Shown here: piece after piece, positions 44,903-59,752 of the stretch
Position numbering within the stretch: the stretch's first letter is position 1
Layout: each line of letters opens with the position of its first letter
NCBI GenBank assembly: GCA_964354585.1
Contig: CAYHAI010000052.1
Coordinates: 6,283-70,282 of the forward strand
Source of the DNA: an uncultured Planctomycetales bacterium
GTDB lineage: Bacteria > Omnitrophota > Gorgyraeia > Gygaellales > Profunditerraquicolaceae
Direction: 5' to 3'
Length of the DNA stretch: 64,000 nt
The notes under the pieces: generated by a model
What the model was told of the DNA's origin: nothing
Database searches by the model: none
Seen by the model: the letters and a program-made list of their open reading frames with translations, nothing else
Made by a program: the position numbers and the translations under genes

Positions 44903-44956
44903 AAATAAAAACCGGATTGTCAAATACTGACTTTCCCGTCGGTATTCGGCAACCCG
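44903..44956 (-). terminator. Intrinsic-terminator-like hairpin + U-tract in the leader of the giant gene (possible riboswitch expression platform)
   Basis: On the minus strand CCGGGUUGCC...26-nt loop...GACAAUCCGG (10-bp stem with one mismatch and one G-U) is followed by UUUUUAUUU (plus 44903-44911). Confidence 0.4.
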
Positions 44957-44959
44957 GCT

Positions 44960-45075: not shown

Positions 45076-45099
45076 GCTTTCTATCTTATTTACGTTCAA

Positions 45100-45129
45100 A
45101 GTATAACATATAAAAAATATCTCTGTCAA
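45100..45129 (-). promoter_or_regulatory. Sigma70-type promoter for the giant gene: TTGACA-18 nt-TATACT
   Basis: Minus-strand -35 TTGACA (plus 45124-45129) and -10 TATACT (plus 45100-45105). The TSS is predicted near 45092. The promoter sits between the tad-operon terminator hairpin and the structured leader. Confidence 0.5.
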
Positions 45130-45462: not shown

Positions 45463-46338
45463 TTATTGTCCTAAACCATTGAGCAAGCCGCCTTGCATAA
45501 AATTCAGTAAAATTGGCCCACCCACAATAATGGCAATTACTGGCAATATACAAAAAATTAACGGGATGAGTATCTTTATCGGCGCCTGCAGGGCAATCCG
45601 TTCTCCGCGGTGATAACGCTGTAAGCGCGAATCCTCGGAAAGAATGGCAAAGGCATCTGCCACTGGCGTGCCCATCCTCTCTGCCTGGGCAAGCGTATGC
45701 ACAAAAGAGCTTATCTCCAGTATATTTAATCTTTTAGACATATCTTTGAGGGCTTGGCTGCGGGGCTTGCCCCATTTTATCTCTTCCAGCACAAAGGAAA
45801 ATTCTTCAATGATCGGGCTAGGAGGTAACTTCTCAATAATCCACTTTAAAGCGCTATTAAAATCTAGGCCTGCTTCCACGCACAGGCCGATTAAATCTAC
45901 GGTCTCCGGCAGGTAGCGCACAATTATAAATCTGCGCTTGGCAATCTTGCGGTTGAGGATAATCTCCGGGATAAAATAACCCAAGAGCAGGCACAAAACC
46001 AAAACCCAAGCCTCTAATCTTCCCAAGGCAAAATAGGCGGCAATGGGCAGCAAAATCATCAATAATACTTTCAAATTGAAAAATCCAGCGGCAGTCATTT
46101 TCACATGGGCGGCATCCAGCCTGCGCTTTATGCGCACATCCAGCCCTAATTTCTCTAAGAAAGCGCGGCTAAAAGGAATGAGGTAAGAAAAATAAGAGGG
46201 CGCCTTGGGTTTCTTTAATTGCTCCGCTTGTGGCTCATTCTCCTGAATTTTAATGCTCAGCGGCGAACCATAGCCGGCAAGCCCCAGAGAAATTAAAGCC
46301 CCGGCAGCAATCACTAAAAGAAAAATTAATAAAGCCAT
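45463..46338 (-). CDS. tadC: Tad pilus inner-membrane platform protein TadC (T2SS-F domain)
   Basis: 291-aa ORF with a GspF/T2SSF-like repeat and TM segments. Its position is last in the tad cluster. Confidence 0.8.
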   Translation of the reverse strand: MALLIFLLVIAAGALISLGLAGYGSPLSIKIQENEPQAEQLKKPKAPSYFSYLIPFSRAFLEKLGLDVRIKRRLDAAHVKMTAAGFFNLKVLLMILLPIAAYFALGRLEAWVLVLCLLLGYFIPEIILNRKIAKRRFIIVRYLPETVDLIGLCVEAGLDFNSALKWIIEKLPPSPIIEEFSFVLEEIKWGKPRSQALKDMSKRLNILEISSFVHTLAQAERMGTPVADAFAILSEDSRLQRYHRGERIALQAPIKILIPLIFCILPVIAIIVGGPILLNFMQGGLLNGLGQ

Positions 46339-46350
46339 CTACTTCTCCTT

Positions 46351-47235
46351 TTACACATTTATCGTGCTGAATTTACGGATTAAAATCATCCCCACTGCCT
46401 GTAAGACCACGGCGATAATCAGAAGCATCCTTCCCTGTTCGCTATTCAAAAGAATATCAAAGTGATTACGGTTCATCCCCAGCACGCCGACAATGAAAAC
46501 AAAGGGCAGCACGGACATAATCGCGCCTTGCATCCGGCCTTGCATAGTCAAGGTCTTGATATTTTCTTTTAATTTGCGGTTATCGCGGATAGTCGTGGAA
46601 AGCCGGCTAAAGACCTTGGTTAAATCTCCGCCGGTCTCTTTAGCCACTAAAATGGAATTAACCAATAATCCTAATTCCTCTATGCGCATCCTTTCATTCA
46701 GCCGCTTCAAACTCTCATCTAAGGTTATCCCCATCTTATTCTCTCTTAATACCAGGCCAAACTCCTGCGAGATGGGCGGGGGCAGTTCTTCCACTAAAAC
46801 CTCAATGGCCTGGATAAGCGATAAACCTGCTTTTAAAGACGAGGAGAGCAGCTGCACGCCGTCAATGAGTTGCGCCTGAAACCATATTTTGCGCTGGGCC
46901 TGTAATCTTTTGATGATAAGGGTGGGTAAGGCAAAACCGATTCCTATGCCGATAAAGAGAAAAATTAAGCTCTGGAAGAAAATCAGGCCGAATGCCCCTA
47001 AGAGCAACGGCGGCAGGATATGCATCAAGAGCAGTTTATTTTTCTCTATATGGACGAACATCGTATCTAATTGTTTCTCTGATTCTCCTACTTTTTTTTC
47101 TAAAGGGCGCTGGAATTTCTCTAAAAACAAAGGGATTAACTGGGTGGAGAGCAGCCCGATGGAACTAAACGCCAAAATAAGAATACTCAGTTTTAAAACC
47201 ATTTTACTTCTCCTGATACTGACGGCCAAAGCCAA
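46351..47235 (-). CDS. tadB: Tad pilus inner-membrane platform protein TadB (T2SS-F domain)
   Basis: 294-aa ORF with a T2SSF domain and three TM segments. It is adjacent to tadC. Confidence 0.8.
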   Translation of the reverse strand: MALAVSIRRSKMVLKLSILILAFSSIGLLSTQLIPLFLEKFQRPLEKKVGESEKQLDTMFVHIEKNKLLLMHILPPLLLGAFGLIFFQSLIFLFIGIGIGFALPTLIIKRLQAQRKIWFQAQLIDGVQLLSSSLKAGLSLIQAIEVLVEELPPPISQEFGLVLRENKMGITLDESLKRLNERMRIEELGLLVNSILVAKETGGDLTKVFSRLSTTIRDNRKLKENIKTLTMQGRMQGAIMSVLPFVFIVGVLGMNRNHFDILLNSEQGRMLLIIAVVLQAVGMILIRKFSTINV

Positions 47236-47367: not shown

Positions 47368-47838
47368 TCATTCAGCGCCCTTCCATTGCAGGGAAACCAA
47401 TTTCTTCTTCCCCAATTTAGAAACCGTAAATAATAATGTTTTATTATAACCCGAATAATCGCAAGCCACAACTACTTCTGCGCCCTGTTGAGCATAAAGC
47501 CGCCAATGAGTGAATGATTTTAATTCTGCCTTGACGCGGCTAAAACCCACAGAAAAACTCTTGATAAATGCCTGGCGATAAGCGGATTTTTCTTTTTCAT
47601 TAGGCAGGCCATTATAAGTTGCGCCTACGTCCATTCCCACGGCTTTAAAATTCTCCCAATCAATAAATTTTTCTGCAGGGGCTGAGCCCTTAACCAAATG
47701 CGTAAATACAGCGCGGCAAAAATTAATCTCTTGATTTTTGACCTGTAAGAAAAAGGCAAGGGCAACCATTATTACTACCAGCAAAATTATGTATTCTAAA
47801 ATTGGTTGATTATTTCTCATTCTGTCTTGTCTAAGCAC
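47368..47838 (-). CDS. TadE-like pseudopilin (class III signal, QPILEY)
   Basis: N-terminus MLRQDRMRNNQPILEYIILLVVIMVALAFF fits the TadE/Flp prepilin-like pattern. Confidence 0.5.
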   Translation of the reverse strand: MLRQDRMRNNQPILEYIILLVVIMVALAFFLQVKNQEINFCRAVFTHLVKGSAPAEKFIDWENFKAVGMDVGATYNGLPNEKEKSAYRQAFIKSFSVGFSRVKAELKSFTHWRLYAQQGAEVVVACDYSGYNKTLLFTVSKLGKKKLVSLQWKGAE

Positions 47839-49871
47839 ACGTTATCATAACGATAATGAGCTACGCTCTTCCTGACCACCTGGCCATTAAACAAGGGGTT
47901 CCACTTGCCTAAAATTCCCATATTTTTATCGGCCGGGTCAGTGCGGGTTATTTGGACCCAAGGACGGCCTGTAGCATTCTCAAGCACCATACAAACCTCA
48001 TCGCTATGGTGTTTCGTCTTGAGCCGAGGCACCTTAAATCTGTTGGTTTCTATCTTTACAATGTGATAACTGGTATATTTTCCGTTAGCATCTTTGGGAC
48101 AACGGGTATCTGCCCAAGCGTACTCTATAGGATTCTTTCCGCCAAAGGCGTCATATGTCCCTTTGTCATCAATTGCGTTTTGAATTTTATTGTATAAATG
48201 TTTAACTGCTTTACGGAAATCTTCAATCTCCTTCATCATCTGCTCTATATCCTTAATTGCCGGCTTAAACTCATCATCCGCTACATTATCTATAGTCCCT
48301 TCATTGTGTGTTAGCCGACAAGGCGGATTACAAACTTCCTCTGCAGAACCTGTGCCATCAGCGCCACAAGGACCATACACGCACTTAGGTAAATTGCCCC
48401 GTTTCTTTTTAAACTCCTTTTTCCAATCATCTAGTCCCGCAAACTCCTTCGTGCCTTCCGCTAAGTCTTTTAGGCTGTCACGATAGTCTTGCCCTTCACC
48501 ATCTTCATCGCTTTCTTTATCCGGGTCATAAAGAAATCCCATCCAGTCCTCCCATTGGTCCACCAATTGATTTAAACTCTCTGCTCCCCAAGTGTCTATT
48601 GCCTCAATTATTTCTTTAAACTCTGTCACTACTCTATCTACGCTATCATAATATTTATCCTCTTCCTGCTCCGGGCAATCCTCGCCTGTACAAACAGTCG
48701 TCTTAGTATGTTCTGGCGGAGTTCCTGACTTATAGAAAGAAAGGTCATAACCAGCATCTTCTAAACCGCGGGCTAATAAAATAATACTGCCGTCAACACC
48801 ATCTAATTCCTGACGAGACAGGGCGCCGCCTGGCGCATATTGCTCGGCAATAAAATCCCGGAAGACCTTGGCTGGCCCGGCCTGAAATTCTCCGTGAACC
48901 ATTTTACCATTAAAGAATTCATCAATCAATGTCTTTAGCTGGGCAAGGTTAGTTTTAGCATTAGCTATGCGGCGCTCCCACCAATACTGAAAATAAGGGA
49001 CTTTTTCCTCAATATCGCCGTCTTCATCCGAATCAAATTCATCAATGTGCATATTCGGGTCATCTACGGTCTGGCTTAAGGCCTGCAAAAATACGCCTTC
49101 GCGGAAGCGGTCTGCCGCCTGTGGTAAGCCATTTAAAGCCTTGGCAGCGGCGGAAAAAGCTGCTTGGGTTATCTTGTCCGCGATATAGGCATTGTAGATA
49201 CTTGCGCCGGCAGCTAAGGTGGTACCCACAATTCCCCCTGTGCTTGTTAAGAGCGCCAAAGGAGTGTTTGCCACCATTAGGGTGCTACCTTGTGTCATTA
49301 CTCCTGCCAACTCCGTAGACCCAACAGTCGCAGGAGTAACCTGATACATAGCTGGGCCTCCTAAGCTAGTTACTGCTCCGCCAATGGCTAAGCCTACACT
49401 AAACCCTTGGATTGCCCCTTGCAACGCCCCAGGCCCGGCAATCGCGCCACCAATTGCCCCTCCTATTGTACCGCCTATAACTGCATTTCCGATTGTAGTC
49501 AAAGCTAAACTCGCTCCAAAAGTAAACGGTGCCAAAAGTATACCCAGTCCTGCGCCAAAAATCCCGCCAATAATGCCGCCCCAGCCGGTTTTTGTACAAC
49601 ATTTAGTAGGCTTACCACAGGCCTTACGCAACGCATCAGATAACATCCGTGACTTGGTGCCTAATTGCGAGGCAAGGTATAAACTGGCAGCATCTGCAGC
49701 ATTGGATAAGTTAGTGGTAGTTACAGAAATCTGGCCGATATTTACCGTCACTAAAACAAAAATTAAAACCGCCACCATTATCAACATCAATAAGGTGGCA
49801 ATCTGGCCGCTGGGCTTTGTGCTACGCAGGCTATTTAAAGACATTGTCTTATAAAGATAACTAATCATCAT
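47817..49871 (-). CDS. TadG-like large pseudopilin / putative pilus-associated adhesin. Gly-rich and acidic, with Cys-rich modules.
   Basis: 684 aa. The N-terminal anchor ...KPSGQIATLLMLIMVAVLIFVLV is TadE/G-like. It is followed by GGxIGG-rich repeats, an acidic DEDGD stretch and CxxC-rich segments. The gene is embedded in the pseudopilin block. Confidence 0.5.
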   Translation of the reverse strand: MMISYLYKTMSLNSLRSTKPSGQIATLLMLIMVAVLIFVLVTVNIGQISVTTTNLSNAADAASLYLASQLGTKSRMLSDALRKACGKPTKCCTKTGWGGIIGGIFGAGLGILLAPFTFGASLALTTIGNAVIGGTIGGAIGGAIAGPGALQGAIQGFSVGLAIGGAVTSLGGPAMYQVTPATVGSTELAGVMTQGSTLMVANTPLALLTSTGGIVGTTLAAGASIYNAYIADKITQAAFSAAAKALNGLPQAADRFREGVFLQALSQTVDDPNMHIDEFDSDEDGDIEEKVPYFQYWWERRIANAKTNLAQLKTLIDEFFNGKMVHGEFQAGPAKVFRDFIAEQYAPGGALSRQELDGVDGSIILLARGLEDAGYDLSFYKSGTPPEHTKTTVCTGEDCPEQEEDKYYDSVDRVVTEFKEIIEAIDTWGAESLNQLVDQWEDWMGFLYDPDKESDEDGEGQDYRDSLKDLAEGTKEFAGLDDWKKEFKKKRGNLPKCVYGPCGADGTGSAEEVCNPPCRLTHNEGTIDNVADDEFKPAIKDIEQMMKEIEDFRKAVKHLYNKIQNAIDDKGTYDAFGGKNPIEYAWADTRCPKDANGKYTSYHIVKIETNRFKVPRLKTKHHSDEVCMVLENATGRPWVQITRTDPADKNMGILGKWNPLFNGQVVRKSVAHYRYDNVCLDKTE

Positions 49872-50128
49872 TTCTCCCCTAAAATATTTAAACGCAAGTA
49901 TCCGGTTTCATTTACCTGTATCTCAGCAGCATTGGTGGTGTTGCCTGCAGCAACGCGGCCTCTCTCAGGATTATACTCATAATCCCGCTGCCTAAGAATA
50001 AAACGTTTATTTAACCAGATAAATAAATTCAGTGTGCCTAATAAAAGAATAAAGACGCTGATAAGCGCCACAGCCATTTCTAAGGAAACTTGCCCCTTTC
50101 TAAACCTACCTACCAATCTGTTTGCCAT
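49868..50128 (-). CDS. tadE: TadE-like pseudopilin
   Basis: 86 aa. N-terminus RKGQVSLEMAVALISVFILLLG matches the TadE N-terminal motif. Confidence 0.65.
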   Translation of the reverse strand: MANRLVGRFRKGQVSLEMAVALISVFILLLGTLNLFIWLNKRFILRQRDYEYNPERGRVAAGNTTNAAEIQVNETGYLRLNILGEK

Positions 50129-51237
50129 TCTTGAGTCCTACTTTTAGGTTCTACCGTGCCGACGACATTTGTTTCATTTGTCTGCGCGTTCTCATTACGC
50201 ATATCCCGAGAAATGATTTTTCTTTCAGTCTCCACCTTCCAATCAAAGGTATCCCGGGAAGCAATGCCAGCAGCACTCTCGCGTTTCTCTAATTTATTAT
50301 TAGTAGTGGCTACCTGGGTATAGCCATCTTGCAAGCCCATACCTTTTGATTTATCCGGGGTAAAGGCAAAAATTTGGTTTAAAACTTTGAAATTATATTG
50401 ATGTGTTTTGTCATTAATCTCTTCGTAATCAGTGGCGGGATTAATGCCGGGCCTAGTCCCGCAATACCAAGGCGCATTCATCGGCTTGCTGCAGGTATCC
50501 GCGCATTTCTTTCCCCCGCCTTCCTCGCAGGTCTCGGTGCAGACTTCTTCATCCACAATCAAGCGGCACTGCCTGACTGCCGCATCATAATTCATAATCT
50601 GACCGGCGCAGCTGTCAATAAATCTTATTTTATTGATGGAGTATTCTTTGCACTTATCCGCGTTCTTAGCATCGTACTTTATACAAGCCTTGTCGTCTTT
50701 GGTCAATTTCTTCAATTTTACCCAGCCTTCTTTGGTTGACCCCTGATTGGTTAACCCCTGAATACTATTACCATATATCTCCACATATTTATCTATGCTT
50801 TCCTCGCTGACATTAAACGAGTAGCTAAATCCAGCGGTCTTGTAGGGAATTTTCTCTCCCTGAACATCAATGATTACCTGCGGCAATTCATCTTCGTAAT
50901 CCGGCGTCTCATCTAATTTATAGGAACGCACAATGCTTGCGCCCGAGGAAAAAGGCATTACCGAGCCCACAGCAAACGTATCCGCAGGATTGGGGATATG
51001 TTTATCTCTGACTACAATGTGTGAAGTAGATACAGGCGTATGCGGATCCATTGACACTGCTGCCGTGGCCAAGGCCTGTCTGAAGGCCTGCTGCATCACC
51101 TGCTGCTGAAAGCCATAGCGCAAGCCATAATTGATTAAGATGCCTAAAAGCATAATTAAAATTGAGCCAAAGATGGCTAATTCTAATATGGCCTGCCCTT
51201 TAATATAAAGATGATTCCATTGTTCCAACTGTCTCAT
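50110..51237 (-). CDS. TadE/TadF-like pseudopilin with a large Cys-rich C-terminal domain
   Basis: 375 aa. N-terminus IKGQAILELAIFGSILIMLLG is TadE-like. The C-terminal part has many Cys (CxxC pairs). Confidence 0.6.
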   Translation of the reverse strand: MRQLEQWNHLYIKGQAILELAIFGSILIMLLGILINYGLRYGFQQQVMQQAFRQALATAAVSMDPHTPVSTSHIVVRDKHIPNPADTFAVGSVMPFSSGASIVRSYKLDETPDYEDELPQVIIDVQGEKIPYKTAGFSYSFNVSEESIDKYVEIYGNSIQGLTNQGSTKEGWVKLKKLTKDDKACIKYDAKNADKCKEYSINKIRFIDSCAGQIMNYDAAVRQCRLIVDEEVCTETCEEGGGKKCADTCSKPMNAPWYCGTRPGINPATDYEEINDKTHQYNFKVLNQIFAFTPDKSKGMGLQDGYTQVATTNNKLEKRESAAGIASRDTFDWKVETERKIISRDMRNENAQTNETNVVGTVEPKSRTQEWQTDW

Positions 51238-51646
51238 CCCCTTTTTGTTTCGTAGTTGAATTATCTAGCACCGATAATGTCTCGGTAGCAAACACATCCT
51301 CATCATCATAATCACCGTCTCCGTTTAGGTCAATATTCGCCCCGGGATGCTCTAAATTAAGCTGGTGCTCACTTAAAGTCCTCGCTGTAGTATTAGAAGT
51401 GCTATTATAACTTACCGTGGAAATTCCGCTGGTATTGCGCGGGGCATACTGCTGGCCTAATTCATCTCCTAATTGGCGTAACCTTCCTTGCATACCGCGC
51501 TTAAGATAAACCTGCATCGCCAATAATGCCGCTACCAGACAAATAACTAACGCGGCGTATTCCAAGGTGGATTGGGCTTTATTTTTTTTCCTGCGATATC
51601 CCCCAAGAAAGAACGCCCTTTTGCGTGGTCGTATCATCCTTTTCAT
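51200..51646 (-). CDS. Flp/TadE-family pilin paralog 1 (start uncertain, probably an internal Met)
   Basis: ...KKNKAQSTLEYAALVICLVAALLAMQVYLKRGMQG: class III prepilin-like N-terminus plus a variable Ser/Thr/Asp-rich tail. Confidence 0.6.
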   Translation of the reverse strand: MKRMIRPRKRAFFLGGYRRKKNKAQSTLEYAALVICLVAALLAMQVYLKRGMQGRLRQLGDELGQQYAPRNTSGISTVSYNSTSNTTARTLSEHQLNLEHPGANIDLNGDGDYDDEDVFATETLSVLDNSTTKQKGDETVGTMESSLY

Positions 51647-51935
51647 AACTTACTGCCCCTCCTGCGCTTTGGGTGGTGGTGGCCTTTGTCACCGCAGAAC
51701 TACTCGTTTCCGAATCGCCCTTTTTTTTCCATTCATATCTGTAGTCATAGTCAGCTGCGCCTTTTTTCTGGTCTCCGATTTTATCTGCTATGACTTTTAT
51801 GTTCGCCTGGATGCCCCTTTTCATATAGACCTGCAGGCCCAAGAGGGCTGCGGAAATAATTCCCACCAGCAGCACATAATCCGTAATACTCTGAGCCTTT
51901 CTCTGAAAAATTATTTTCATTTTTTCTCTACCCAC
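51579..51935 (-). CDS. Flp-family pilin paralog 2
   Basis: ...QRKAQSITDYVLLVGIISAALLGLQVYMKRGIQ plus a variable tail. Confidence 0.6.
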   Translation of the reverse strand: MGREKMKIIFQRKAQSITDYVLLVGIISAALLGLQVYMKRGIQANIKVIADKIGDQKKGAADYDYRYEWKKKGDSETSSSAVTKATTTQSAGGAVSYEKDDTTTQKGVLSWGISQEKK

Positions 51936-52243
51936 GTCTCTACGGTTTCTGTTCCTGTTTCTTTATAAATATCTGCTTGGCCTTTTCCCCCTTGGCCGGA
52001 ATAACTGGTCGTAACCCCCCCGCTTAATTCCTGCACCATTTCTCCTTTATGTCTGGTTTCTGAGTGAACCGCGGTTTTCCCGAGGTCAAATTGCGCGCCG
52101 ATATCATCCGTAGAGGTGCGTAATTTCCCTTGCACCCCGCGCTTAAGATAGGTCTGCAGAAGTAAAAGTGCGGCGATAATCACGCAAACCAGCACTACGT
52201 ATTCCAGGGTAGACTGGGCTTTGGCTAATTTTCGCTTAAACAT
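51917..52243 (-). CDS. Flp-family pilin paralog 3
   Basis: MFKRKLAKAQSTLEYVVLVCVIIAALLLLQTYLKRGVQG. A strong SD (CCTCC on the plus strand) lies upstream. Confidence 0.65.
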   Translation of the reverse strand: MFKRKLAKAQSTLEYVVLVCVIIAALLLLQTYLKRGVQGKLRTSTDDIGAQFDLGKTAVHSETRHKGEMVQELSGGVTTSYSGQGGKGQADIYKETGTETVETWVEKK

Positions 52244-52282
52244 TTGGCTTCACCTCCTAAATTTACTTTGCTCTGTTTACTT

Positions 52283-52639
52283 CTAGTCTGCGTCATCCAC
52301 AGATTTTATCTTCTGATAACCGCTGCGCTCGGTTTCTTTCCCGCCACCTGCTCCGACTACGCGAGTAACTTTACCACTGGCCTCGGTCTTCTCAGTATCC
52401 TTATAAGCCTTGGCCTTGGTTTCATAAGCAGACTCCAGATAATAAGGCTCATACTGGTCTGTCCCAGCGCTTTTAGCGGCCTTATCCACGGTAAATTTCA
52501 CGCCTGCTTGCAGATTTCTCTTGATATAGGTCTGCATCGCGATTGCCGCGGCCACAATTATACCAATAAGGATAGCGTATTCCGCGGTATTCTGGCCCTT
52601 TTTATTTCTCAGCAATGATAGTAACATTTTCTTATTCAC
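52283..52639 (-). CDS. Flp-family pilin paralog 4
   Basis: ...RNKKGQNTAEYAILIGIIVAAAIAMQTYIKR: G/XXXXEY prepilin motif. Confidence 0.65.
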   Translation of the reverse strand: MNKKMLLSLLRNKKGQNTAEYAILIGIIVAAAIAMQTYIKRNLQAGVKFTVDKAAKSAGTDQYEPYYLESAYETKAKAYKDTEKTEASGKVTRVVGAGGGKETERSGYQKIKSVDDAD

Positions 52640-52654
52640 CTCCTATCCCTTGTT

Positions 52655-53020
52655 TTATTTATCAAATAAGGGTTCGTTCACTAATGGCTCCACTGTTTCT
52701 TTGTCTGCGCCCTGGGCGCTATGTTTTATTTCTGCTGGCGTGACCACTTTATAATGAGATACTCCTTGATCTCGAGTAGTCTCGTCATCCGCCAACCCAA
52801 AGGTCTCTTTGGTGGTAGACTCCCCAGCTTGCTCAGTGGTATAGAGAGAAGTTGTCCTACCCGCAGAATACTGCTCGCCAATTTTGTCTGCGGATTCGCG
52901 TAATTTCCCCTGCATACCCCGTTTCATATAGACATTCATCGCCACTAAAGCCGCGGCAATAACCGCAATAATTACTGCGTATTCCAGGGTAGATTGTGCT
53001 TTTTTGTGAGAAAATTTCAT
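52655..53020 (-). CDS. Flp-family pilin paralog 5
   Basis: MKFSHKKAQSTLEYAVIIAVIAAALVAMNVYMKRGMQG. AGGAGG lies 10 nt upstream. Confidence 0.65.
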   Translation of the reverse strand: MKFSHKKAQSTLEYAVIIAVIAAALVAMNVYMKRGMQGKLRESADKIGEQYSAGRTTSLYTTEQAGESTTKETFGLADDETTRDQGVSHYKVVTPAEIKHSAQGADKETVEPLVNEPLFDK

Positions 53021-53069
53021 TTTTCTTTCACCTCCTCAACCGCTCTTGCTTAAGAGTTCCCTTATTCTT

Positions 53070-53435
53070 TTAATAATCCTGTTTTTGATAATCCCCGCTC
53101 GCCTGCTTTGTTCTACGGATAGTATCCCGCGTGACACTGCCTTCCTTAGTCATATCTTCTGTTTTAGCATCTTCAAGCACGGCCTGCGTGGATTTACTGG
53201 ATAAATTTCCCATCTCATATTGTCCGGATGCAGTGGCTGCGGTATTACTAATACTCGCCCAATCCCCACTTCCGGTAAGACCAGTATAAAAATCATCTCC
53301 GGCATCTTTAGACCTTGCTTGCATGCCCCTTTTGACATAGGTTTGTATCCCTATGGCTGCTGCGATGACTAGACCAATAAGAATAGCGTATTCCGCGGTA
53401 TTCTGGCCTTTCTTATTTCTTAAGATTCTCAACAT
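53070..53435 (-). CDS. Flp-family pilin paralog 6. The track ORF extends to 53474, but the likely start is ATG 53435 behind AGGAGGTG.
   Basis: MLRILRNKKGQNTAEYAILIGLVIAAAIGIQTYVKRGMQ. The SD AGGAGG lies 7 nt upstream of ATG 53435. Confidence 0.6.
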   Translation of the reverse strand: MLRILRNKKGQNTAEYAILIGLVIAAAIGIQTYVKRGMQARSKDAGDDFYTGLTGSGDWASISNTAATASGQYEMGNLSSKSTQAVLEDAKTEDMTKEGSVTRDTIRRTKQASGDYQKQDY

Positions 53436-53484
53436 ATTTTCACCTCCTAAATTATTCACCTGTTCCGCTGCCACCTGACTAAGG

Positions 53485-53664
53485 TTACTTTGGCACTACT
53501 TTATCTGCGGCTTTACCAATCGCGCTATTGGCATTGTTTAAAGATGCCTGGACTGCTGGCTTAATCCAGGTTGCTGCGGCATAAATAATTAAGCCGACAA
53601 TCGCGGTCAAGATGAGTAAATATTCCAATGTGCTCTGGCCGTTTTTCTTTAAAGATTTTACCAT
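53485..53664 (-). CDS. flp: Flp pilin paralog 7 (59 aa, below the track cut-off)
   Basis: Manual translation: MVKSLKKNGQSTLEYLLILTAIVGLIIYAAATWIKPAVQASLNNANSAIGKAADKVVPK. This has classic Flp length and the G/QSTLEY motif. Confidence 0.6.
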   Translation of the reverse strand: MVKSLKKNGQSTLEYLLILTAIVGLIIYAAATWIKPAVQASLNNANSAIGKAADKVVPK

Positions 53665-53679
53665 ATCAGCTTCACCCCC

Positions 53680-53877
53680 TTATTTTACCATATCTGCTAC
53701 TTTACCTGAATCTGTTTGTATCCTATCTCCTGCCTGTTTCATTAATTTCCCCACTCCACCTTCACCTGTCGGCTCTTTTTTCCCTAATATAACTGCGAGA
53801 GCAACTACTGCCGCAATTATTGCGGTAAAAACAATTACGTATTCCAATGTACCCTGGGCTTTTTTCTTTCTCAACAT
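53680..53877 (-). CDS. flp: Flp pilin paralog 8 (65 aa)
   Basis: MLRKKKAQGTLEYVIVFTAIIAAVVALAVILG... Confidence 0.6.
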   Translation of the reverse strand: MLRKKKAQGTLEYVIVFTAIIAAVVALAVILGKKEPTGEGGVGKLMKQAGDRIQTDSGKVADMVK

Positions 53878-53892
53878 ATTTTCACCCCCCTA

Positions 53893-54063
53893 TTATGGTT
53901 GTGGTTCAGCATTAATTTGGTCTTCTACCAGCTTTAAGTTTGCCTGCACTGAACGCTGGACATAGACATTCATCGCCATTAAAGCCGCAGCCACCACGGA
54001 AATAATCAGCGCGTATTCCAAAACACTCTGGCCGCGCCTGGTGGTTATTTTGCCCAACTTCAT
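53893..54063 (-). CDS. flp: Flp pilin paralog 9 (56 aa, below the track cut-off)
   Basis: Manual translation: MKLGKITTRRGQSVLEYALIISVVAAALMAMNVYVQRSVQANLKLVEDQINAEPQP. The SD GAAGGAG lies upstream. Confidence 0.55.
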   Translation of the reverse strand: MKLGKITTRRGQSVLEYALIISVVAAALMAMNVYVQRSVQANLKLVEDQINAEPQP

Positions 54064-54075
54064 CTTCCTCTCCTT

Positions 54076-54291
54076 CTATTTATTTGCCAAGTTTAACCCG
54101 CTGGTTCCTATCGCCTTTTGGAAAAACCCCTTTGTCTTACTATTGCCTTGCAGCGTCCTTTGTATCACCGGTAAAAAAGAACTGAAAGATAAGATAACCA
54201 AAAGCGCAACTACACTAAAAATTATAAAATATTCCAAAGAAGCTTGGCCTTTTTTACTTTTATTTATTTTTAAGGACTTTATAAAAGTCAT
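54076..54291 (-). CDS. flp: Flp pilin paralog 10 (71 aa), first gene of the pilin array
   Basis: MTFIKSLKINKSKKGQASLEYFIIFSVVALLVILSF... Confidence 0.6.
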   Translation of the reverse strand: MTFIKSLKINKSKKGQASLEYFIIFSVVALLVILSFSSFLPVIQRTLQGNSKTKGFFQKAIGTSGLNLANK

Positions 54292-54306: not shown

Positions 54307-54339
54307 TAAATAAAAAACCGAAAACCTAAACGGCTTTCG
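54307..54339 (-). terminator. Intrinsic terminator (CCGAAA-11 nt loop-UUUCGG + UUUUUUAUUU) immediately upstream of the pilin array
   Basis: Hairpin at plus 54317-54339, with a minus-strand U-tract at 54307-54316. Confidence 0.4.
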
Positions 54340-54378
54340 GTAACCCGGCTAATGTTCTCGCTTTGACCCTTAAGCACT

Positions 54379-54405
54379 GGGACTGTCCCCGCAGGGGACT
54401 GTCCC
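54379..54405. repeat. Palindromic element: two GGGACTGTCCC units separated by 5 nt
   Basis: GGGACTGTCCCCGCAGGGGACTGTCCC seen directly. The same unit pair occurs in the giant gene at 44095-44130 and 44291-44326. Confidence 0.7.
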
Positions 54406-54557
54406 TAAATTACTGGCGAGCATCATCCCGTGGCTTTGCGCAGCAGGAACCTCCATTCCCACCTTGCGTTTTCGTTGCCGCCCTACAATTGCACTTAAAA
54501 TATAACATCTGTAATCGTGAATGTCAAGAATATTTTACCCTTCTCCAGAAACCGCTT

Positions 54558-54742: not shown

Positions 54743-54771
54743 TTGACATTGGACATTTCTTATGTTATATT
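54743..54771 (+). promoter_or_regulatory. Consensus sigma70 promoter TTGACA-17-TATATT, overlapping an inverted repeat ATTGGACATTT / AAATGTCCAAT (operator-like)
   Basis: -35 at 54743-54748 and -10 at 54766-54771. The inverted-repeat arms lie at about 54749-54759 and 54786-54796. Confidence 0.5.
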
Positions 54772-54815
54772 TAAATCGAGATGATAAATGTCCAATCTAT
54801 AAAAATGGGCGAAAA

Positions 54816-56525
54816 ATGGGCGTAATTTATAAATTAAAACCCGAAATTAAAAACTGGCTATTAGAAAGAAAACGGACTAACCCGGTTTTAAGTTGCCGCG
54901 GCCTAGTCTCTCTACTGGAAGAGGAATTTAAAATAAAGGTTTCCAAATCTAGTGTTAACTGCTTGGTTAAAGAAGCTGGCCTGAGTATGCCCATAGGAAG
55001 AAGGCAGAAAAAAAGAAGGCGCCAGGTTCCTGCCGCAGTTCAGCCTCAACCAGAGCCAACCATAGAAATACCCCTTCAACTACCTGCGCCAACTCAGCCA
55101 GAACCAGCCTTAGAGGCGCCTATTGAACCTCAGCCGGAAATGCCTAAAGAAACACCTACACCACCTCAGCTAGAAGTGCCTATAGAAACTCCACCATCAG
55201 AAACACCTATGTCCATTCCGCCAGAATTACCGATACAGACATCCCTGCAAATACCGGACGAAATTCTGCAAAAAATGCTCTCGTCGGGTATAATTTTGCT
55301 GAAGGCAGCGGATTATTTAATCGGTGGCAGCTACCTTATTCAGGAAACGATGAAAAAACACCTAAACCTGCGCGATAAAAATCTGTTAGATAAAATAGAA
55401 TGTTTAATCTATGCGCCCTTGTTGGGGATACCTGAAGAACTGTCCAAGACATATCTTAATGAATTACAAGGGGCAGAATCAATAGCCCAAGAGATATTGC
55501 GGGTTTTATCCGGCATATTAACCGAGATACGTTGTCTCAAAGTCCTTTTAGCCGATGGAGATGCTTTATATTTAGATGGCCAATTTCATACCATCTGGTC
55601 AGTGCCCAATATTCCCTATGATTTTGTAAACACTATCTACAATATAAAAAATTATATAACCAAATCCTTCTACAAAGATGAGCCCCTTACCCTTTTGATG
55701 GCTCCGGGTTACGATACGCCTACCATGGAATTCTTCAATTTCATTTTAAGTTTCGGGGGCAGGATGAAAAACATTACTAGACTTAGTATCGATGACAATA
55801 AATCGCAGGAGTTGGAGTCCACGCCCTTAGAGCAGAATAAAAAACGCTCCTTCGTATTGGGGCTTTGGCCCTGGCAGTTTGTAGAATATCGCCGGGTTAA
55901 GAAAATAGGGGATTTTAAGCCCTTTTATTTCCAGGCGCAGGGGAAAAACTTCTATCTGGCCGATATAGAGATTGAATTATCTTGGCCCAACAAATATCAA
56001 TCAATTACATTTTCCGGTTGCGCCTTGAAAACAAATCTCGCTGAAAAAACGCGTTTGATTATAATAAGTAACCTTGCTGGAGAGTTAGCCAAGCCCGAAT
56101 ATCTGGCGAATACCTATCTTAGCCGCTGGCCAAATTTAGAAGAAGCATTCCAAGATTTTAGTCATAAAGTTGAACTCTTTACCTATACTGCTGACTCCCA
56201 GGGCTTCTTTTTTGTAGAGAAGTTGAATTTGAACCAAGACACATCCGGCATAAAACAATTGCTTGACTGGTATCTTGGGGTATTAGATTTATATGTTAAA
56301 TGGCACTTCCTCCCCTCTGAATATACAGGCAAAGACTTATTGACCCTCAAAGAGGGGTTTTACGACCTTAAGGTAGTTTTCCAACCGCAAAAAGAGCATG
56401 CCTTAGCAACCTTCCAACCACCTTCGGGATTCCGCTCCCTAAATGCGCTGGAATACGCCTGCCGCAGGCTAAACGAAAGAGAAATTATCCTTACCGACGG
56501 CAAGCGCCTCTGGTTCTCCCCCTAA
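54816..56525 (+). CDS. Putative transposase: N-terminal HTH, Pro-rich linker, C-terminal DDE-type domain with an RW...E...F...K motif. The track ORF starts at 54762, but the first ATG lies in the promoter spacer, so the start is probably 54816.
   Basis: MGVIYKLKPEIKNWLLERKRTNPVLSCRGLVSLLEEEFKIKVSKSSVNCLVKEAGL is HTH-like. A PQPEP-type proline linker follows. YLSRWPNLEEAFQDFSHK resembles the Y-R-W-E-F-K signature of IS4/IS701-like DDE transposases. The gene is flanked by direct REP-like copies. Confidence 0.5.
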   Translation: MGVIYKLKPEIKNWLLERKRTNPVLSCRGLVSLLEEEFKIKVSKSSVNCLVKEAGLSMPIGRRQKKRRRQVPAAVQPQPEPTIEIPLQLPAPTQPEPALEAPIEPQPEMPKETPTPPQLEVPIETPPSETPMSIPPELPIQTSLQIPDEILQKMLSSGIILLKAADYLIGGSYLIQETMKKHLNLRDKNLLDKIECLIYAPLLGIPEELSKTYLNELQGAESIAQEILRVLSGILTEIRCLKVLLADGDALYLDGQFHTIWSVPNIPYDFVNTIYNIKNYITKSFYKDEPLTLLMAPGYDTPTMEFFNFILSFGGRMKNITRLSIDDNKSQELESTPLEQNKKRSFVLGLWPWQFVEYRRVKKIGDFKPFYFQAQGKNFYLADIEIELSWPNKYQSITFSGCALKTNLAEKTRLIIISNLAGELAKPEYLANTYLSRWPNLEEAFQDFSHKVELFTYTADSQGFFFVEKLNLNQDTSGIKQLLDWYLGVLDLYVKWHFLPSEYTGKDLLTLKEGFYDLKVVFQPQKEHALATFQPPSGFRSLNALEYACRRLNEREIILTDGKRLWFSP

Positions 56526-56663: not shown

Positions 56664-57146
56664 ATGTCAAGGGGAGCAAGATTAACTTTAGACAACGCCT
56701 CTTATCATATCATGGTAAGAGGAAACCAGAAACAAGTTACTTTTATTGAAGAAACAGATTTCCTAAAATATCTTGAACTATTAAAACACTATAAAAAGAA
56801 ATATAAGTTTAAATTGTACGGGTATTGTTTAATGCCTAACCATATACATCTAATAATCGATATCGAGAAAGGGTCTGACGTGGCTAAGATTATGCAAGGA
56901 TTAAATCAAACATACACAATCTGGTTCAATGAAAAATATAAAAAAGTGGGCCATCTATGGCAAGGAAGATACAAAAGTATGCTTATCCAGAAAAATAAAT
57001 ATATGCTTGAATGCATAGAATATGTAGAATTTAATCCTATTAGAGCAAACATAAGCAAATCTCCTTTTGAATATCGTTGGAGCAGCTGGCAAGAACGCCT
57101 GGGTTGCAAGGAAAATACCCTACTGAACTTACCCCAATTAACTTAA
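56664..57146 (+). CDS. tnpA: REP-associated tyrosine transposase (RAYT) / IS200-like HuH transposase TnpA
   Basis: 160 aa with the HuH motif LMPNHIHLII and a downstream catalytic-Tyr region (FEYRWSSWQ). It has a strong SD GGAGGT and is flanked by inverted REP-like copies 2 and 3. Confidence 0.75.
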   Translation: MSRGARLTLDNASYHIMVRGNQKQVTFIEETDFLKYLELLKHYKKKYKFKLYGYCLMPNHIHLIIDIEKGSDVAKIMQGLNQTYTIWFNEKYKKVGHLWQGRYKSMLIQKNKYMLECIEYVEFNPIRANISKSPFEYRWSSWQERLGCKENTLLNLPQLT

Positions 57147-57186: not shown

Positions 57187-57564
57187 TTATTCTATGAGGA
57201 GGGTATCATTTTGGCAGGTGGAGGTTGATTGAATAATACCTGGGGGTAATTCAATAGCAAAAGCAGCATTAAAATATGCACAGGTAATACAGAATGGCCT
57301 TAAAGAGGTTATGGTTTTTATGACCCGGCTGTTTTTATCCACGAATAAGACATCTATAGGAAAGCGCATAAAAAAGGTATGTATGGAATTGCATGGCCTT
57401 AAGATAAGCGCCTGGCTCGGTTTAAATTCCTTTCTACCCAAAAGGCCTTTCATTCTTTTAAAAAGACTGTTAGCGATTATGGCTTCTTCGGCTAAAATAG
57501 TATTTTGGGTTTTATTAATTATCTTCATTCTTTCTTTGGGGGACACCCTTCCGATTAGTTCCAA
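57187..57564 (-). CDS. DUF192-family protein (COG1430-like)
   Basis: Motifs FKRMKGLLGR...LILRPCNSIHTFFMRFPIDVLFVDKNSRV match the DUF192 pattern. Confidence 0.5.
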   Translation of the reverse strand: MELIGRVSPKERMKIINKTQNTILAEEAIIANSLFKRMKGLLGRKEFKPSQALILRPCNSIHTFFMRFPIDVLFVDKNSRVIKTITSLRPFCITCAYFNAAFAIELPPGIIQSTSTCQNDTLLIE

Positions 57565-57606
57565 AGACGTCCCTCGATTGGATGGAAAGACGTCCCTAGG
57601 GGGATT
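57538..57606 (-). repeat. REP-like element copy 4 (overlaps the cpaF stop codon)
   Basis: Reverse complement is cccccTAGGGACGTCTTTCCATCCAATCGAGGGACGTCTTTGGAACTAATCGGAAGGGTGTCC. Confidence 0.7.
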
Positions 57607-59752
57607 TGAAGATACCTTCGGGGAGAGAGATACCTTTTATTCTGATCTCTTCAATAAAAGAAGGCACATAGCCTGTGGCTGCAAAATCTCCTAATACATT
57701 GCCTTGACCGTCAATGCCGCTTTGCTTAAACGCGAAGATATCCCTCAGGTCAATATGGATTTCGTCTTTCATCCCCGCCACTTCGGTTATCTGTAAAACC
57801 TTGCGGCTTCCGTCGGAGAGCCGGGCAGTATGGACGATTAGATCTACGGCAGAGGCAGTCATCTCGCGGATCGCCCTGATGGGAAGCTCAATGCCGGACA
57901 TTAAAATCATTGAATCAAGCCTCATCAAAACATCGTGCGTAGAGTTGGCGTGGACAGTAGTCATTGAGCCATCGTGGCCGGTATTCATTGCCTGCAACAT
58001 ATCCAGCGTCTCGATACTGCGGCATTCGCCAATAATAATCCTGTCCGGCCTCATCCTTAAGGTGTTGCGGAAAAGATCCTTAATAGTCACCGCGCCCCTG
58101 CCTTCAATATTGGGAGGCCGGGATTCCAGCCTTATCCAATGTTCCTGATGCAATTTTAACTCCGCGGCGTCCTCAATAGTCACAATGCGTTCATTCTCAG
58201 GAATAAAAGCGGAAAGGACATTCAGCAGGGTGGTCTTGCCGCTACCGGTGCCGCCGGAAACAATAATATTTTTTCTGGCTAATACGCAGGCCTTAATAAA
58301 ATCCGCCATCGGCAAATTTAAAGTCTTCAGCCCCACTAACTCTTCAATCTTAAAACGCTCTTTGCGGAATTTTCTGATGGTGAGCGATGGCCCGGTTAAA
58401 GAAAGAGGCGGGATAATCGCATTTACGCGCGAACCGTCGGGGAGCCGGGCATCCACCATCGGCACAGACTCATCAATGCGCCTGCCGATAGGAGCAATAA
58501 TGCGTTCGATAACTGTCCTTACCTGCTCATTGGAAATAAACCTCTTGCTCGTCAGTTCAATCTTGCCGTTGCGCTCCACATATACTTCGTCTTTATTATT
58601 CACCATAATATCGGTTATCGTAGGCTCAGCCAATAAGTCCTCCAAAGGGCCTAACCCTAAGGCTTCATCCAGAATTTCTTTTACCAACTTTTTCCTTACC
58701 TCTTGCGAAGAAATAAAACTACCCGCCTCTTCTACCAAGAAATTCGTCACCATCATCTCTGCCCTGTCTTTTAACTCTTTGGTCTTTCTGGGGTCGCTGA
58801 ACACCTTCAAATCTAGCCTCTTCAGATTCAATTCGGCGATGAGGCGATTATGAATGCGGCGTTTAAGTATGAGTATTTCGTCTATCTCTTCGGGCGCCGC
58901 TGGCTCAACTAACGGCTCAATTAAACCCTGCCTTTGCCAAAAATCTCCGGTTTTTTCCAATGCTAATTCCTTAAGTTGTATTTCGTCTATTTCGCGGTGT
59001 TTAATAAATAAATCTTTATCTATGACTAGTTTATGGGCAAAGGTATTTAGGGAAGAGGCGATCTTTGTCCTTGGCTTATTAATCACCAGGGGGATGCGCA
59101 GATTTATTGACTCTCCCGCTGATTTTCCGTCGGAAGGTATCTGGGCAATAATATCCACTGCCAGGTTTACCTTGACCTCTTGCCAGCTAATACTAGCCAC
59201 AGATTCCGCCCGGTTAAGCACCACCTTAATCATCGCTAAAGGAAAATGTAAAGACTGCAACGTATCTAAGGCCCATTTAGTCTGGTATATAGAGAGTATA
59301 TCCGGCGTCACTACTAAAAGAATAAGATTTGCCTGATTCAAGATATTTATAAATAACTCGCTGAAGTTCCTGCCACCATCTATAATGATGTAATCATAAT
59401 GCTTATCCAATAAGGCAAAGACTTCTGTGATTTTCTCCGGCTTAAGATGGGGTGATTGTTGCGGCCTTAAAATTCCGGCTAAAAAGTCAATGTTTAAATC
59501 CGGGCTGTGCACCGCAAAATCATCTTTTTTAAACTGCTGGGGCTGCCTTTCAAGCAGAGAGATTAAATCTACCATTGCCTTTTGCGGTTTTAGATTTAAC
59601 ATCCTGGCCATATCACCGGCCACGTGGGTGTCTAAATCAATGACGCAGACGCGCTTAAATTCGCCCCTGCTTAAGGAAACCGCCAGATTAGCGGCAATGA
59701 GGGTTTTGCCCACACCGCCTTTTGTGCTAAATATGACGATTTTCTTGGCCAT
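57596..59752 (-). CDS. cpaF: Fused CpaE/TadZ-like ParA/MinD ATPase (N-terminal) + CpaF/TadA secretion ATPase (C-terminal)
   Basis: 718 aa. The N-terminus KIVIFSTKGGVGKTLIAANLAVSL carries a deviant Walker A of the ParA/MinD class. The C-terminal half has the T2SS-E/CpaF Walker A VSGGTGSGKTTLLN plus Asp/His boxes. Its start codon lies 3 nt after the secretin stop. Confidence 0.8.
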   Translation of the reverse strand: MAKKIVIFSTKGGVGKTLIAANLAVSLSRGEFKRVCVIDLDTHVAGDMARMLNLKPQKAMVDLISLLERQPQQFKKDDFAVHSPDLNIDFLAGILRPQQSPHLKPEKITEVFALLDKHYDYIIIDGGRNFSELFINILNQANLILLVVTPDILSIYQTKWALDTLQSLHFPLAMIKVVLNRAESVASISWQEVKVNLAVDIIAQIPSDGKSAGESINLRIPLVINKPRTKIASSLNTFAHKLVIDKDLFIKHREIDEIQLKELALEKTGDFWQRQGLIEPLVEPAAPEEIDEILILKRRIHNRLIAELNLKRLDLKVFSDPRKTKELKDRAEMMVTNFLVEEAGSFISSQEVRKKLVKEILDEALGLGPLEDLLAEPTITDIMVNNKDEVYVERNGKIELTSKRFISNEQVRTVIERIIAPIGRRIDESVPMVDARLPDGSRVNAIIPPLSLTGPSLTIRKFRKERFKIEELVGLKTLNLPMADFIKACVLARKNIIVSGGTGSGKTTLLNVLSAFIPENERIVTIEDAAELKLHQEHWIRLESRPPNIEGRGAVTIKDLFRNTLRMRPDRIIIGECRSIETLDMLQAMNTGHDGSMTTVHANSTHDVLMRLDSMILMSGIELPIRAIREMTASAVDLIVHTARLSDGSRKVLQITEVAGMKDEIHIDLRDIFAFKQSGIDGQGNVLGDFAATGYVPSFIEEIRIKGISLPEGIFKSP

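Follow-up and report, generated by a model that had tools for sequence, protein, structure and literature searches.

A tandem array of ten prepilin genes behind a riboswitch-type leader in an Omnitrophota Tad locus

The Omnitrophota are widespread, uncultured, ultra-small bacteria thought to be predators or parasites, and how they attach to or attack their hosts is an open question. The main candidates for this role are the Tad pilus locus and the giant genes of the phylum (PMC10066038; bioRxiv 10.1101/2023.11.21.568195). We analysed a 64,000-nucleotide stretch of DNA from an uncultured member of this phylum (GenBank assembly GCA_964354585.1, contig CAYHAI010000052.1, positions 6,283 to 70,282; hereafter the window), in which ten consecutive prepilin open reading frames, p1 to p10, occupy region 51200-54291 on the minus strand of a Tad locus. 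Canonical Tad loci carry one to three flp genes of 50-90 amino acids, with the prepilin peptidase gene in the locus. What would a Tad machine do with ten small pilins?

An initial annotation of the array had offered antigenic or receptor variation and a heteropolymeric fibre as possible answers. Our analysis found the second to be the best reading and a plausible one. With somewhat more confidence than doubt, we read the locus as specifying a riboswitch-gated heteropolymeric Tad filament composed of a major pilin, adapter pilins and minor pilins with variable heads. The evidence for this reading comes from the anatomy of the ten genes, from their conservation across the phylum and from a riboswitch-type leader upstream of p1 that the initial annotation had not described.

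Ten intact prepilin genes of two architectures

The ten genes run from 54291 to 51200 with all reading frames intact and intergenic gaps of -68 to +49 nucleotides. Four short, Flp-like prepilins come first: p1 (54076-54291, 71 amino acids), p2 (53893-54063, 56 amino acids, 45 when mature), p3 (53680-53877, 65 amino acids) and p4 (53485-53664, 59 amino acids). The six long pilins are p5 (53070-53435, 121 amino acids from an ATG with a GGAGG site, or 134 from an upstream GTG), p6 (52655-53020, 121 amino acids), p7 (52283-52627, 114 amino acids), p8 (51917-52243, 108 amino acids), p9 (51579-51920, 113 amino acids) and p10 (51200-51646, 148 amino acids). The start of p10 lies 68 nucleotides inside p9 (51579-51646) and its leader, at 24 amino acids, is unusually long and very basic; at the same position in a related locus, L010, the orthologs likewise overlap, by 83 nucleotides (L010 17555-17637).

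All ten frames lie on the minus strand where the initial annotation had drawn them, and the two that it had found by hand below 60 amino acids (53485-53664 and 53893-54063) are real open reading frames with good ribosome-binding sites. Its length range of 56 to about 120 amino acids describes p1-p9 but not p10. It had also reported strong AGGAGG sites at most genes, a statement that we can keep in part: the sites are of the GGAGG type at p2 and p5-p8, AGGAGG at p10 and G-rich at p3 and p4, but weaker at p1 and p9.

The prepilin N-terminus that had been proposed as common to the array is present in all ten proteins, with Tad machinery encoded around them. It reads [K/R][G/A]-Q-x-x-x-[E/D]-Y, follows basic leaders of 7-24 amino acids and leads into a hydrophobic helix (about 20 hydrophobic residues). 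Position -1 is Gly in five genes and Ala in the other five, while Gln at +1 and Tyr at +6 occur in ten of ten; position +5 is Glu in nine and Asp in p9. We compared the window with 80 species-level loci whose ATPases are 61-78% identical to its own, nearly all of them labelled Candidatus Omnitrophota. A regular expression combining the motif with the hydrophobic stretch gave 12 matches on the minus strand of the window, all contiguous and corresponding to the ten pilins and the next two genes, and 0 matches on the plus strand of the window or on the opposite strand of the 80 related loci. Because the matches are contiguous and confined to the minus strand, the pattern is specific rather than a product of chance.

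The array consists of real open reading frames and is not a misassembly, as three observations confirm. In a repeat search, the paralogs are 60-77% identical at the DNA level over their N-terminal coding region. Three independent assemblies each contain a called protein identical to p6, and its neighbours there have 59, 121 (134 in one gene call) and 114 amino acids. Independent gene callers working on other assemblies report p4-p7 and, in addition, the C-terminal part of p3. The first two of these rule out assembly duplicates, a source of error that the initial annotation had raised against itself.

To which family do these proteins belong? On the Pfam model PF04964 (Flp_Fap, gathering threshold 32.2 bits), p6 scores 20.0 bits, p2 matches weakly at 14.1 bits and the other eight give no match, leaving none of the ten at threshold. 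On PF04021 (Class_IIIsignal, threshold 23.7 bits), p1 scores 23.7 bits, exactly at the threshold, p3-p7 score 16-22.4 bits, and p2, p8, p9 and p10 give no match. As a set, p1-p10 score on Class_IIIsignal as well as or better than on Flp_Fap, and at E<=0.01 short Omnitrophota homologs match Class_IIIsignal in 18 of 56 cases and Flp_Fap in 6 of 56. No match to PF07811 (TadE, threshold 22.9 bits) was found for p1-p10 at E<=1, and an NCBIfam scan of the ten proteins returned only irrelevant sub-threshold matches. At JGI, the protein identical to p6 is labelled 'Flp pilus assembly pilin Flp', and some relatives are labelled 'UPF0333'. A class III signal peptide is defined as a short leader ending in Gly, with Gln at +1 and Glu at +5 (PMC3875500). 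The motif of the array is composite: its Gln at +1 and Glu at +5 are those of archaeal EppA substrates, and its Tyr at +6 is that of bacterial Flp pilins.

Size separates the ten proteins into two groups, with p1-p4 (56-71 amino acids) falling within the Flp range of roughly 50-90 amino acids and p5-p10 (108-148 amino acids) outside it. The mature forms of p1-p4 have 45-58 residues, the size of helix-only Flp pilins, leaving room for little beyond the helix. Conversely, the conserved helix shared by p5-p10 (Y-x-K-R-G-x-Q-x-x-L-[K/R]...D-x-I-G) is longer, and another 57-82 residues come after it. Among them p5 is the sister of p7, with 73% identity over the first 30 mature residues. Judging by their sequences, we would file p1-p4 as divergent Flp-type pilins. 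For p5-p10 we prefer a separate class of Tad-associated pilins to the label 'Flp with tails'. The initial description of all ten as Flp-family pilins with tails thus suits the dimensions of p1-p4; it does not suit p5-p10 with their 108-148 amino acids, nor p6, whose 'tail' is a conserved beta-sheet domain in the predicted structure.

This p6 domain is the best characterised of the additional parts. It is kept over its full length in 48 aligned homologs, with invariant or near-invariant residues, and the AlphaFold2 model of p6 (mean predicted local distance difference test score, pLDDT, of 78) has a helix at residues 6-49 and a four-stranded antiparallel sheet at 61-101. A profile search with p6 found 4,334 cluster representatives at E<=1e-3, of which 1,491 pass the stricter cut-off of E<=1e-10; among the 150 best matches listed, lengths are mostly 100-140 amino acids. 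By these profile matches the p6-type proteins are a large, unnamed pilin family. Sequence and profile searches of the PDB yielded no relatives.

The tails of the six long paralogs show no detectable match to one another, and between species most of them are also hard to trace. The p7 tail is the sole type kept across the phylum, with direct matches in 24 loci and a tail cluster that 49 of 50 loci possess. Of the 80 species loci, L010 is the only one in which the tails of p5, p6 and p8 are detectable, save for one partial, weak p8 match elsewhere, and those of p9 and p10 give short, weak matches only. Full-length homologs of p8 number 27. An attempt to define orthogroups by clustering the tails alone mostly failed because the tails have diverged past BLAST recognition. 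These comparisons suggest that the assembly helix is conserved while the heads attached to it diverge fast.

Age and constraint of the array across Omnitrophota

Is the expansion peculiar to this genome? We counted small pilin genes in the 45 related loci with at least 8 kb of sequence downstream of the ATPase gene, scanning with the motif as far as the first large pseudopilin, so that the counts are lower bounds. Each locus has 3-10 such genes after the ATPase (median 6), most commonly three short and three long. The four short and six long genes of the window therefore stand at the upper end of a phylum-wide architecture. L010 is near-collinear with the window: almost all of the genes have orthologs there, arranged in the same order. 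The small genes of L076 number 13 in total. Gene order is broadly kept across loci whose ATPases are only 61-78% identical. The pilin expansion is thus the normal architecture of the phylum and not special to the window genome. The initial annotation had contrasted it with the one to three flp genes of typical tad loci, a contrast that holds in relation to studied systems, since ten tandem pilins exceed every experimentally studied Tad system that we found in the literature, but does not hold within Omnitrophota. A single sentence in a preprint mentions this expansion in the phylum (West-Roberts et al. 2023, bioRxiv 10.1101/2023.11.21.568195), and the array, although conserved in the Tad loci of Omnitrophota, has hardly been described. 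The present analysis adds its two-class anatomy, the large mid-size pilin family with diverging heads, the evidence on age and constraint, and a leader of the c-di-GMP-I riboswitch class resembling that of the giant gene.

The paralogs have diverged widely, with 20-51% pairwise identity between the mature proteins, and each has reciprocal-best-hit orthologs in 4-38 other species (p1 in 16 loci, p4 in 32). Measured against the best orthologs, synonymous divergence (pS) is 0.54-0.97 and saturated for the ten genes, while nonsynonymous divergence (pN) is 0.20-0.44. The most conserved paralog is p2, with the lowest pN (0.20) and orthologs of up to 81% identity. With pN far below pS, all ten genes are protein-coding and under purifying selection. 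Taken together, the comparisons indicate that the paralogs are old, specialised copies.

These results bear on the idea that several of the small frames are partly decayed duplicates, that is, non-functional remnants or annotation artefacts. Suspicion would fall on p9 and p10, which have orphan tails, few orthologs and an overlap of 68 nucleotides, with p9 also having a weak ribosome-binding site and Asp in place of Glu at +5. However, the ten frames are intact, nonsynonymous divergence lies far below synonymous divergence in every one of them, an overlap recurs at the p9/p10 position of L010, and p4-p7 with the C-terminal part of p3 have been called independently elsewhere. We consider decay highly improbable.

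The same comparisons bear on antigenic or phase variation, according to which the array would hold ten alternative major pilins, expressed singly or shuffled by gene conversion, that evade recognition or change receptor specificity. Tandem paralogs that share an N-terminal assembly helix and differ in their C-terminal parts are what this explanation would lead one to expect, and the tails do diverge fast between species. Against it, a search of the array found no recombination or near-identical DNA tracts, no inverted repeats flanking promoters, no invertible segments and no promoter-less or silent cassettes. The longest near-exact DNA tracts between paralogs, from the repeat search, are of 15-22 nucleotides and lie at ribosome-binding sites. 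Within the one apparent operon every gene is provided with its own ribosome-binding site, the paralogs are only 20-51% identical, and their order is broadly kept between distant species, in L010 almost gene by gene. In addition, the short and long classes differ in architecture and so are not interchangeable variants. We therefore judge the antigenic variation suggested by the initial annotation to be very unlikely; the recombination or gene-conversion tracts that the annotation had proposed to look for were not found in the array. Its notion of receptor variation survives in another form: diversification of target specificity over evolutionary time is plausible, given tails that diverge between species.

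A riboswitch-type leader of a kind shared with a giant gene

If the ten genes are specialised subunits, how might their expression be coordinated? Upstream of p1 we identified a leader that is kept before the first pilin gene in at least 22 relatives. It begins with a predicted sigma-70-like promoter (54499-54527, minus strand) composed of TTGACA, a 17-nucleotide spacer and TG-n-TATATT, an 11/12 match with an extended -10; the -10 box TGnTATATT is invariant in an alignment of 22 orthologous leaders. Downstream lies a candidate aptamer of the cyclic di-GMP I (c-di-GMP-I) class (54336-54478, minus strand), which matches the Rfam model RF01051 with 30.9 bits (E 2e-4) and has a 56-nucleotide insertion in its second hairpin. 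The gathering threshold of this model is 35 bits, and the orthologous leaders of loci L059 and L026 exceed it under permissive filters, with 37.3 and 39.9 bits.

Structural evidence for the aptamer class comes from the orthologous leaders. When the Rfam structure is mapped on 15 of them, 91.3% of cells pair, compared with 22-43% in slid controls. The first hairpin has compensatory changes in six of six pairs and is recovered independently by RNAalifold, while the second hairpin is nearly invariant and thus uninformative. Segments GCGCAAAGCC and GCCGGGUUACCGAA agree with the RF01051 consensus. A covariance model built from the leaders found them in 29 loci, mostly ending 3-70 nucleotides before the first pilin start.

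An intrinsic-terminator-like hairpin with a U-run (54307-54341, minus strand) overlaps the 3' end of the aptamer and is a candidate expression platform. In most relatives the 5' arm of the terminator is the same CCGGGUUACC that forms the 3' strand of the aptamer, and the terminator helix between CCGGGUUACC and GGUAAnCCGG is 90% paired, against 16-51% in slid controls. Since they share this strand, aptamer and terminator would be mutually exclusive. We infer that the switch is of the ON type, with the bound ligand keeping the terminator from forming.

This arrangement resembles that of Clostridioides difficile pilA1, where a c-di-GMP-II riboswitch stands before a pilin operon (Bordeleau et al. 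2015, as cited in PMC6916266), in that a leader of the cyclic-di-GMP-sensing type with a terminator precedes pilin genes. The two differ in riboswitch class (II there, I here), and the clostridial system is a T4a-like pilus of a monoderm with one main pilin. The pilA1 switch reportedly turns expression on. Our literature search returned no paper linking Omnitrophota to any riboswitch, and none of its 12 top-ranked papers links a c-di-GMP riboswitch to Tad or Flp pilins.

The leader is also relevant to the possibility that one machine assembles two or more fibres, the short pilins building one and one or more long pilins another under other conditions. Two clear classes of size and architecture would suit such a division, the long-pilin family is very large, and in Methanococcus maripaludis, where about ten Epd pilin-like genes include several that are dispensable for the known pilus, a similar suggestion has been made (PMC3875500). 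The array, in contrast, appears as one operon behind a single leader, and we found no internal promoters or terminators above background within it. Co-transcription argues against condition-specific alternative fibres, though translational control would be possible, and we hold this explanation to be distinctly unlikely.

A second leader of the same layout lies further along the minus strand. Directly downstream of the TadC gene begins a giant reading frame (2-44770, minus strand, with an ATG at 44764), which comprises at least 14,923 codons and continues beyond the left edge of the window. The encoded protein starts with MDEGGHKKTEAEPEF... and then has a hydrophobic segment. The frame corresponds to the 'giant genes' that West-Roberts 2023 and Seymour 2023 have reported from Omnitrophota. 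It is preceded by a canonical c-di-GMP-I riboswitch (44945-45072, minus strand), which scores 57.8 bits on RF01051, above the threshold. The covariance model built from the pilin leaders also matches here (44906-45078, 63 bits). The predicted giant-gene promoter (about 45100-45129) has a TGTTATACT -10 box (TGTTATAYT) similar to that of the pilin leader, and a terminator-like region (about 44900-44945), comprising GACAAUCCGG and a U-run, pairs with the 3' strand of the aptamer.

The Tad locus of the window is the conserved 'secretion locus upstream of giant genes' of Omnitrophota, for which previous work has also reported that PilZ genes follow the giant genes and that the giant genes themselves contain GGDEF domains (West-Roberts et al. 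2023, bioRxiv 10.1101/2023.11.21.568195). Riboswitches of the same class on the pilin operon and on the giant gene would fit a joint attachment or attack module.

The Tad machinery and the proposed filament

The genes around the array make up a complete Tad (type IVc) pilus locus, prepilin peptidase apart. In minus-strand order, a peptidyl-prolyl isomerase (PPIase) gene is followed by those for CpaB/RcpC (61359-62255), a CpaC/RcpA-type secretin fused to TonB_C (59756-61348, TonB_C at residues 451-529), a fused TadZ/CpaE-TadA/CpaF ATPase (57596-59752, with ParA/CbiA at residues 3-237 and T2SSE at 365-644) and a DUF192 protein (57187-57564) that stands directly after the ATPase both here and in L010, and then by the ten pilins. 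The fusion of TonB_C to a pilus secretin is, to our knowledge, unusual. After the pilins come genes for proteins of 375, 86, 684 and 156 amino acids and, closing the putative operon, the platform proteins TadB (46351-47235, T2SSF 72 bits) and TadC (45463-46338, T2SSF 55 bits). All these genes are on the minus strand, and all Tad machinery components were identified above their Pfam thresholds, save the TadE-like gene.

The pilin-like run extends past p10, as the 375-, 86- and 684-amino-acid proteins share the same type of N-terminus. The first of them (50110-51237) begins with KGQAILE and keeps its position in 35 loci, and its L010 ortholog has a weak TadE match; it is a probable TadE/TadF-type minor pilin. 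The second (49868-50128) is TadE-like, with 18.9 bits on PF07811 against the threshold of 22.9, and the third (47817-49871) is a TadG-like large minor pilin that scores 33.1 bits on PF13400 (Tad), above threshold. The 156-amino-acid frame (47368-47838) has NQPILEY and a hydrophobic helix and gives no Pfam match; it may belong to the run, although this is uncertain. Tad complexes have been reported across the class Velamenicoccia, and so has their expression in the predator V. archaeovorus (Seymour et al. 2023, PMC10066038).

Several further features lie between or beside these genes. Between the ATPase gene and the pilins lies a frame for a protein of 587 amino acids with an N-terminal helix-turn-helix (54762-56525, plus strand), which shares 40% identity with its positional counterpart in L010 (12772-14568). 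This counterpart is co-oriented with the ATPase and pilin genes; in the window the gene is inverted and adjoins an IS200-like Y1 transposase (56664-57146, plus strand), which suggests that the inversion is associated with the insertion sequence (IS). We had considered the frame itself as an IS insertion, which the L010 gene rules out, and regard it as a conserved, uncharacterised member of the locus, possibly a regulator. Upstream of the Tad locus is a tRNA-Glu(CTC) gene (63491-63568, minus strand), and a tRNA gene is kept at the corresponding position in relatives. The 3' end of an 89-amino-acid frame with a GIY-YIG-like N-terminus (63544-63813, minus strand; MYYVYILQS...YIGYT) overlaps it.

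The locus could instead encode a secretion pseudopilus. The machine would then act mainly in the manner of a type II secretion system, its pilin-like proteins forming a short piston or scaffold in the periplasm, in place of a long external adhesive fibre, by which the adjacent giant protein or other effectors would be exported or anchored. The many minor-pilin-like subunits recall what is generally known of the GspG-K set of type II systems, and the pilin operon and giant gene share a riboswitch class and similar promoters. The locus is conserved directly upstream of giant genes and has been called type II secretion-like (West-Roberts et al. 2023). The components themselves are Tad-specific rather than Gsp-type, namely TadZ, RcpC/CpaB, the split TadB and TadC, TadE and TadG domains and the N-domain of a CpaC-type secretin, and pilins of Flp size, probably consisting of the helix only, are characteristic of extended Tad fibres. 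Nor do we know of any link between Tad systems and the export of multi-megadalton proteins. We consider a pseudopilus unlikely.

The heteropolymeric filament that we favour would work as follows. The ten genes would supply the set of structural subunits and would probably form the front of one operon of about 8.9 kb that runs from p1 to TadC. Transcription would start at the conserved sigma-70-type promoter and pass through the c-di-GMP-I-class aptamer. With ligand bound, the aptamer would hold its 3' strand (CCGGGUUACC...), no terminator would form before p1 and the operon would be read. The prepilins would enter the inner membrane, where a prepilin peptidase encoded elsewhere would cut off the basic leaders after Gly or Ala at -1. 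The TadZ-TadA ATPase and the TadB/TadC platform would then polymerise one short, probably helix-only Flp-type pilin into a shaft passing through the RcpC-secretin channel. The best candidate for this shaft pilin would be p2, by its constraint, with p4 second, and the remaining short pilins would serve as low-abundance adapters. The six pilins of 108-148 amino acids would combine a common assembly helix with unrelated heads, in p6 the modelled beta-sheet domain. Together with the TadE/F/G-like proteins, they would prime assembly and decorate the tip or the shaft, presenting target-binding surfaces. The giant surface protein, with its own c-di-GMP-I riboswitch, would be switched on together with the filament.

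A close parallel is the Kil Tad pilus of Myxococcus (Herrou et al. 2025, PMC12075869), in which one major Flp pilin, KilP, works in predation with two Flp-like adapters, KilK and KilO, and with TadE/F/G-like tip complexes that are interchangeable. As in Myxococcus xanthus, the window has a Tad-type machine with several predicted pilin classes in a predatory or parasitic lineage. KilK and KilO are short, helix-only adapters, and TadE/F/G-like minor pilins display the variable domains at the Kil tip. Unlike the single tandem array of the window, the Myxococcus pilin sets are scattered over five loci, and their variability resides in four or five paralogous TadE/F/G-type trimers, to which the window adds six pilins of 108-148 amino acids with unrelated heads. 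No partner of the type III secretion system kind found with Kil (T3SS*) was seen in the window.

In Bdellovibrio, four flp genes were described as 'the largest ... complement known', with six in Halobacteriovorax, and three Flp pilins are each individually required for Bdellovibrio predation (Avidan et al. 2017, PMC5430801). Multiple, non-interchangeable Flp pilins in B. bacteriovorus and a TadZ-TadA fusion in both systems make this a second likeness (PMC5430801; bioRxiv 10.64898/2026.07.08.737194), and in published trees Omnitrophota TadB and TadC group with Bdellovibrionales. Only two of the four Bdellovibrio flp genes lie in the tad operon, and they are FliA-controlled, whereas the window has ten in tandem (14 pilin-like genes with those downstream) behind a riboswitch-type leader.

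With canonical Tad loci, such as Aggregatibacter flp-1/flp-2-tadV-rcpCAB-tadZABCDEFG and Caulobacter cpa, the window shares the same machinery and a G/XXXXEY-type motif. It departs from them in its ten pilins, six of which have an added C-terminal part, in Gln at +1 and, in half of the genes, Ala at -1, in a locus where no peptidase was found, and in the fusions of the ATPase to TadZ and of the secretin to TonB_C. Another resemblance is to the Epd pili of M. maripaludis, which likewise have about ten pilin-like genes in two size classes with Gln at +1 and Glu at +5; these are processed by EppA, have leaders of 5-13 amino acids and comprise one major pilin, several essential minor pilins and several of unknown role (PMC3875500). 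The Epd genes are archaeal and scattered and have neither the +6 Tyr nor a secretin, whereas Omnitrophota keep the Flp Glu-Tyr pair in a diderm Tad locus.

A number of observations weigh against the filament as we have drawn it. On the protein side, position -1 is occupied by Ala in place of Gly in half of the array, and the major pilin is not identifiable from sequence. A Foldseek search with the p6 model found no similar solved structure. In the model of p8 only the helix is confident and the tail, with a beta-hairpin, has low confidence, for which reason we do not extend the beta-domain beyond p6. A crude scan for a GxGD[..]K motif in hydrophobic frames, covering the window and, in the 80 loci, 10 kb on either side of the ATPase, turned up no A24 prepilin peptidase (TadV/CpaA-type). 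Such a scan does not prove absence; in this group as a whole the cognate enzyme seems to have its gene outside the locus. On the RNA side, the window aptamer stays below the RF01051 threshold, leaving ligand and function of this copy uncertain. Six relatives gave no RF01051 match under Rfam default filters and gathering thresholds, misses that were resolved by permissive-filter searches of orthologous leaders and by the custom covariance model. With the latter at E<=0.01, about 20 relatives that have arrays lack such a leader.

The last of these points concerns model position 11, which in the window is C instead of the unpaired G of the consensus and of most relatives. It is also C in L010 and is A in L019, L008 and L011. 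The first-hairpin loop of the pilin-leader aptamers, of 7-8 nucleotides, has a conserved GGAGG in place of a GNRA tetraloop. Together, the variation at position 11 and the GGAGG loop hint at altered ligand specificity or altered tertiary docking. A change from G to A at a ligand-contacting G of the c-di-GMP-I class switches recognition to cyclic GMP-AMP (cGAMP); model position 11 may or may not correspond to that G.

We advance a bolder form of the same filament tentatively, as one whose several parts are doubtful in combination. It would be a composite attack filament of at least ten ordered pilins, drawing on a very abundant and hitherto uncharacterised class of Tad pilins of 100-150 amino acids with a helix plus a small beta-sheet, whose heads diverge between lineages to match hosts or prey. 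Co-switched with the giant protein by twin c-di-GMP-I-class riboswitches, it would constitute a cyclic-dinucleotide-gated module for predation or attachment, in which the C that the window sensor has at a normally conserved G may have retuned it to another ligand.

If the proposed filament is borne out, the Omnitrophota would possess an unusually complex one, with ten small pilins and up to four larger pilin-like proteins. Half of the small subunits would come from a large, undescribed family of mid-size pilins with fast-evolving heads, and the genes of the filament and the giant gene would have a cyclic-dinucleotide RNA switch in common. The idea of an 'adaptable tip', known from Myxococcus, would then extend to a distant phylum. 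For the question of how these bacteria attach to or attack their hosts, the locus would offer an RNA whose ligand can be measured, a defined list of subunits and variable heads to correlate with host range.

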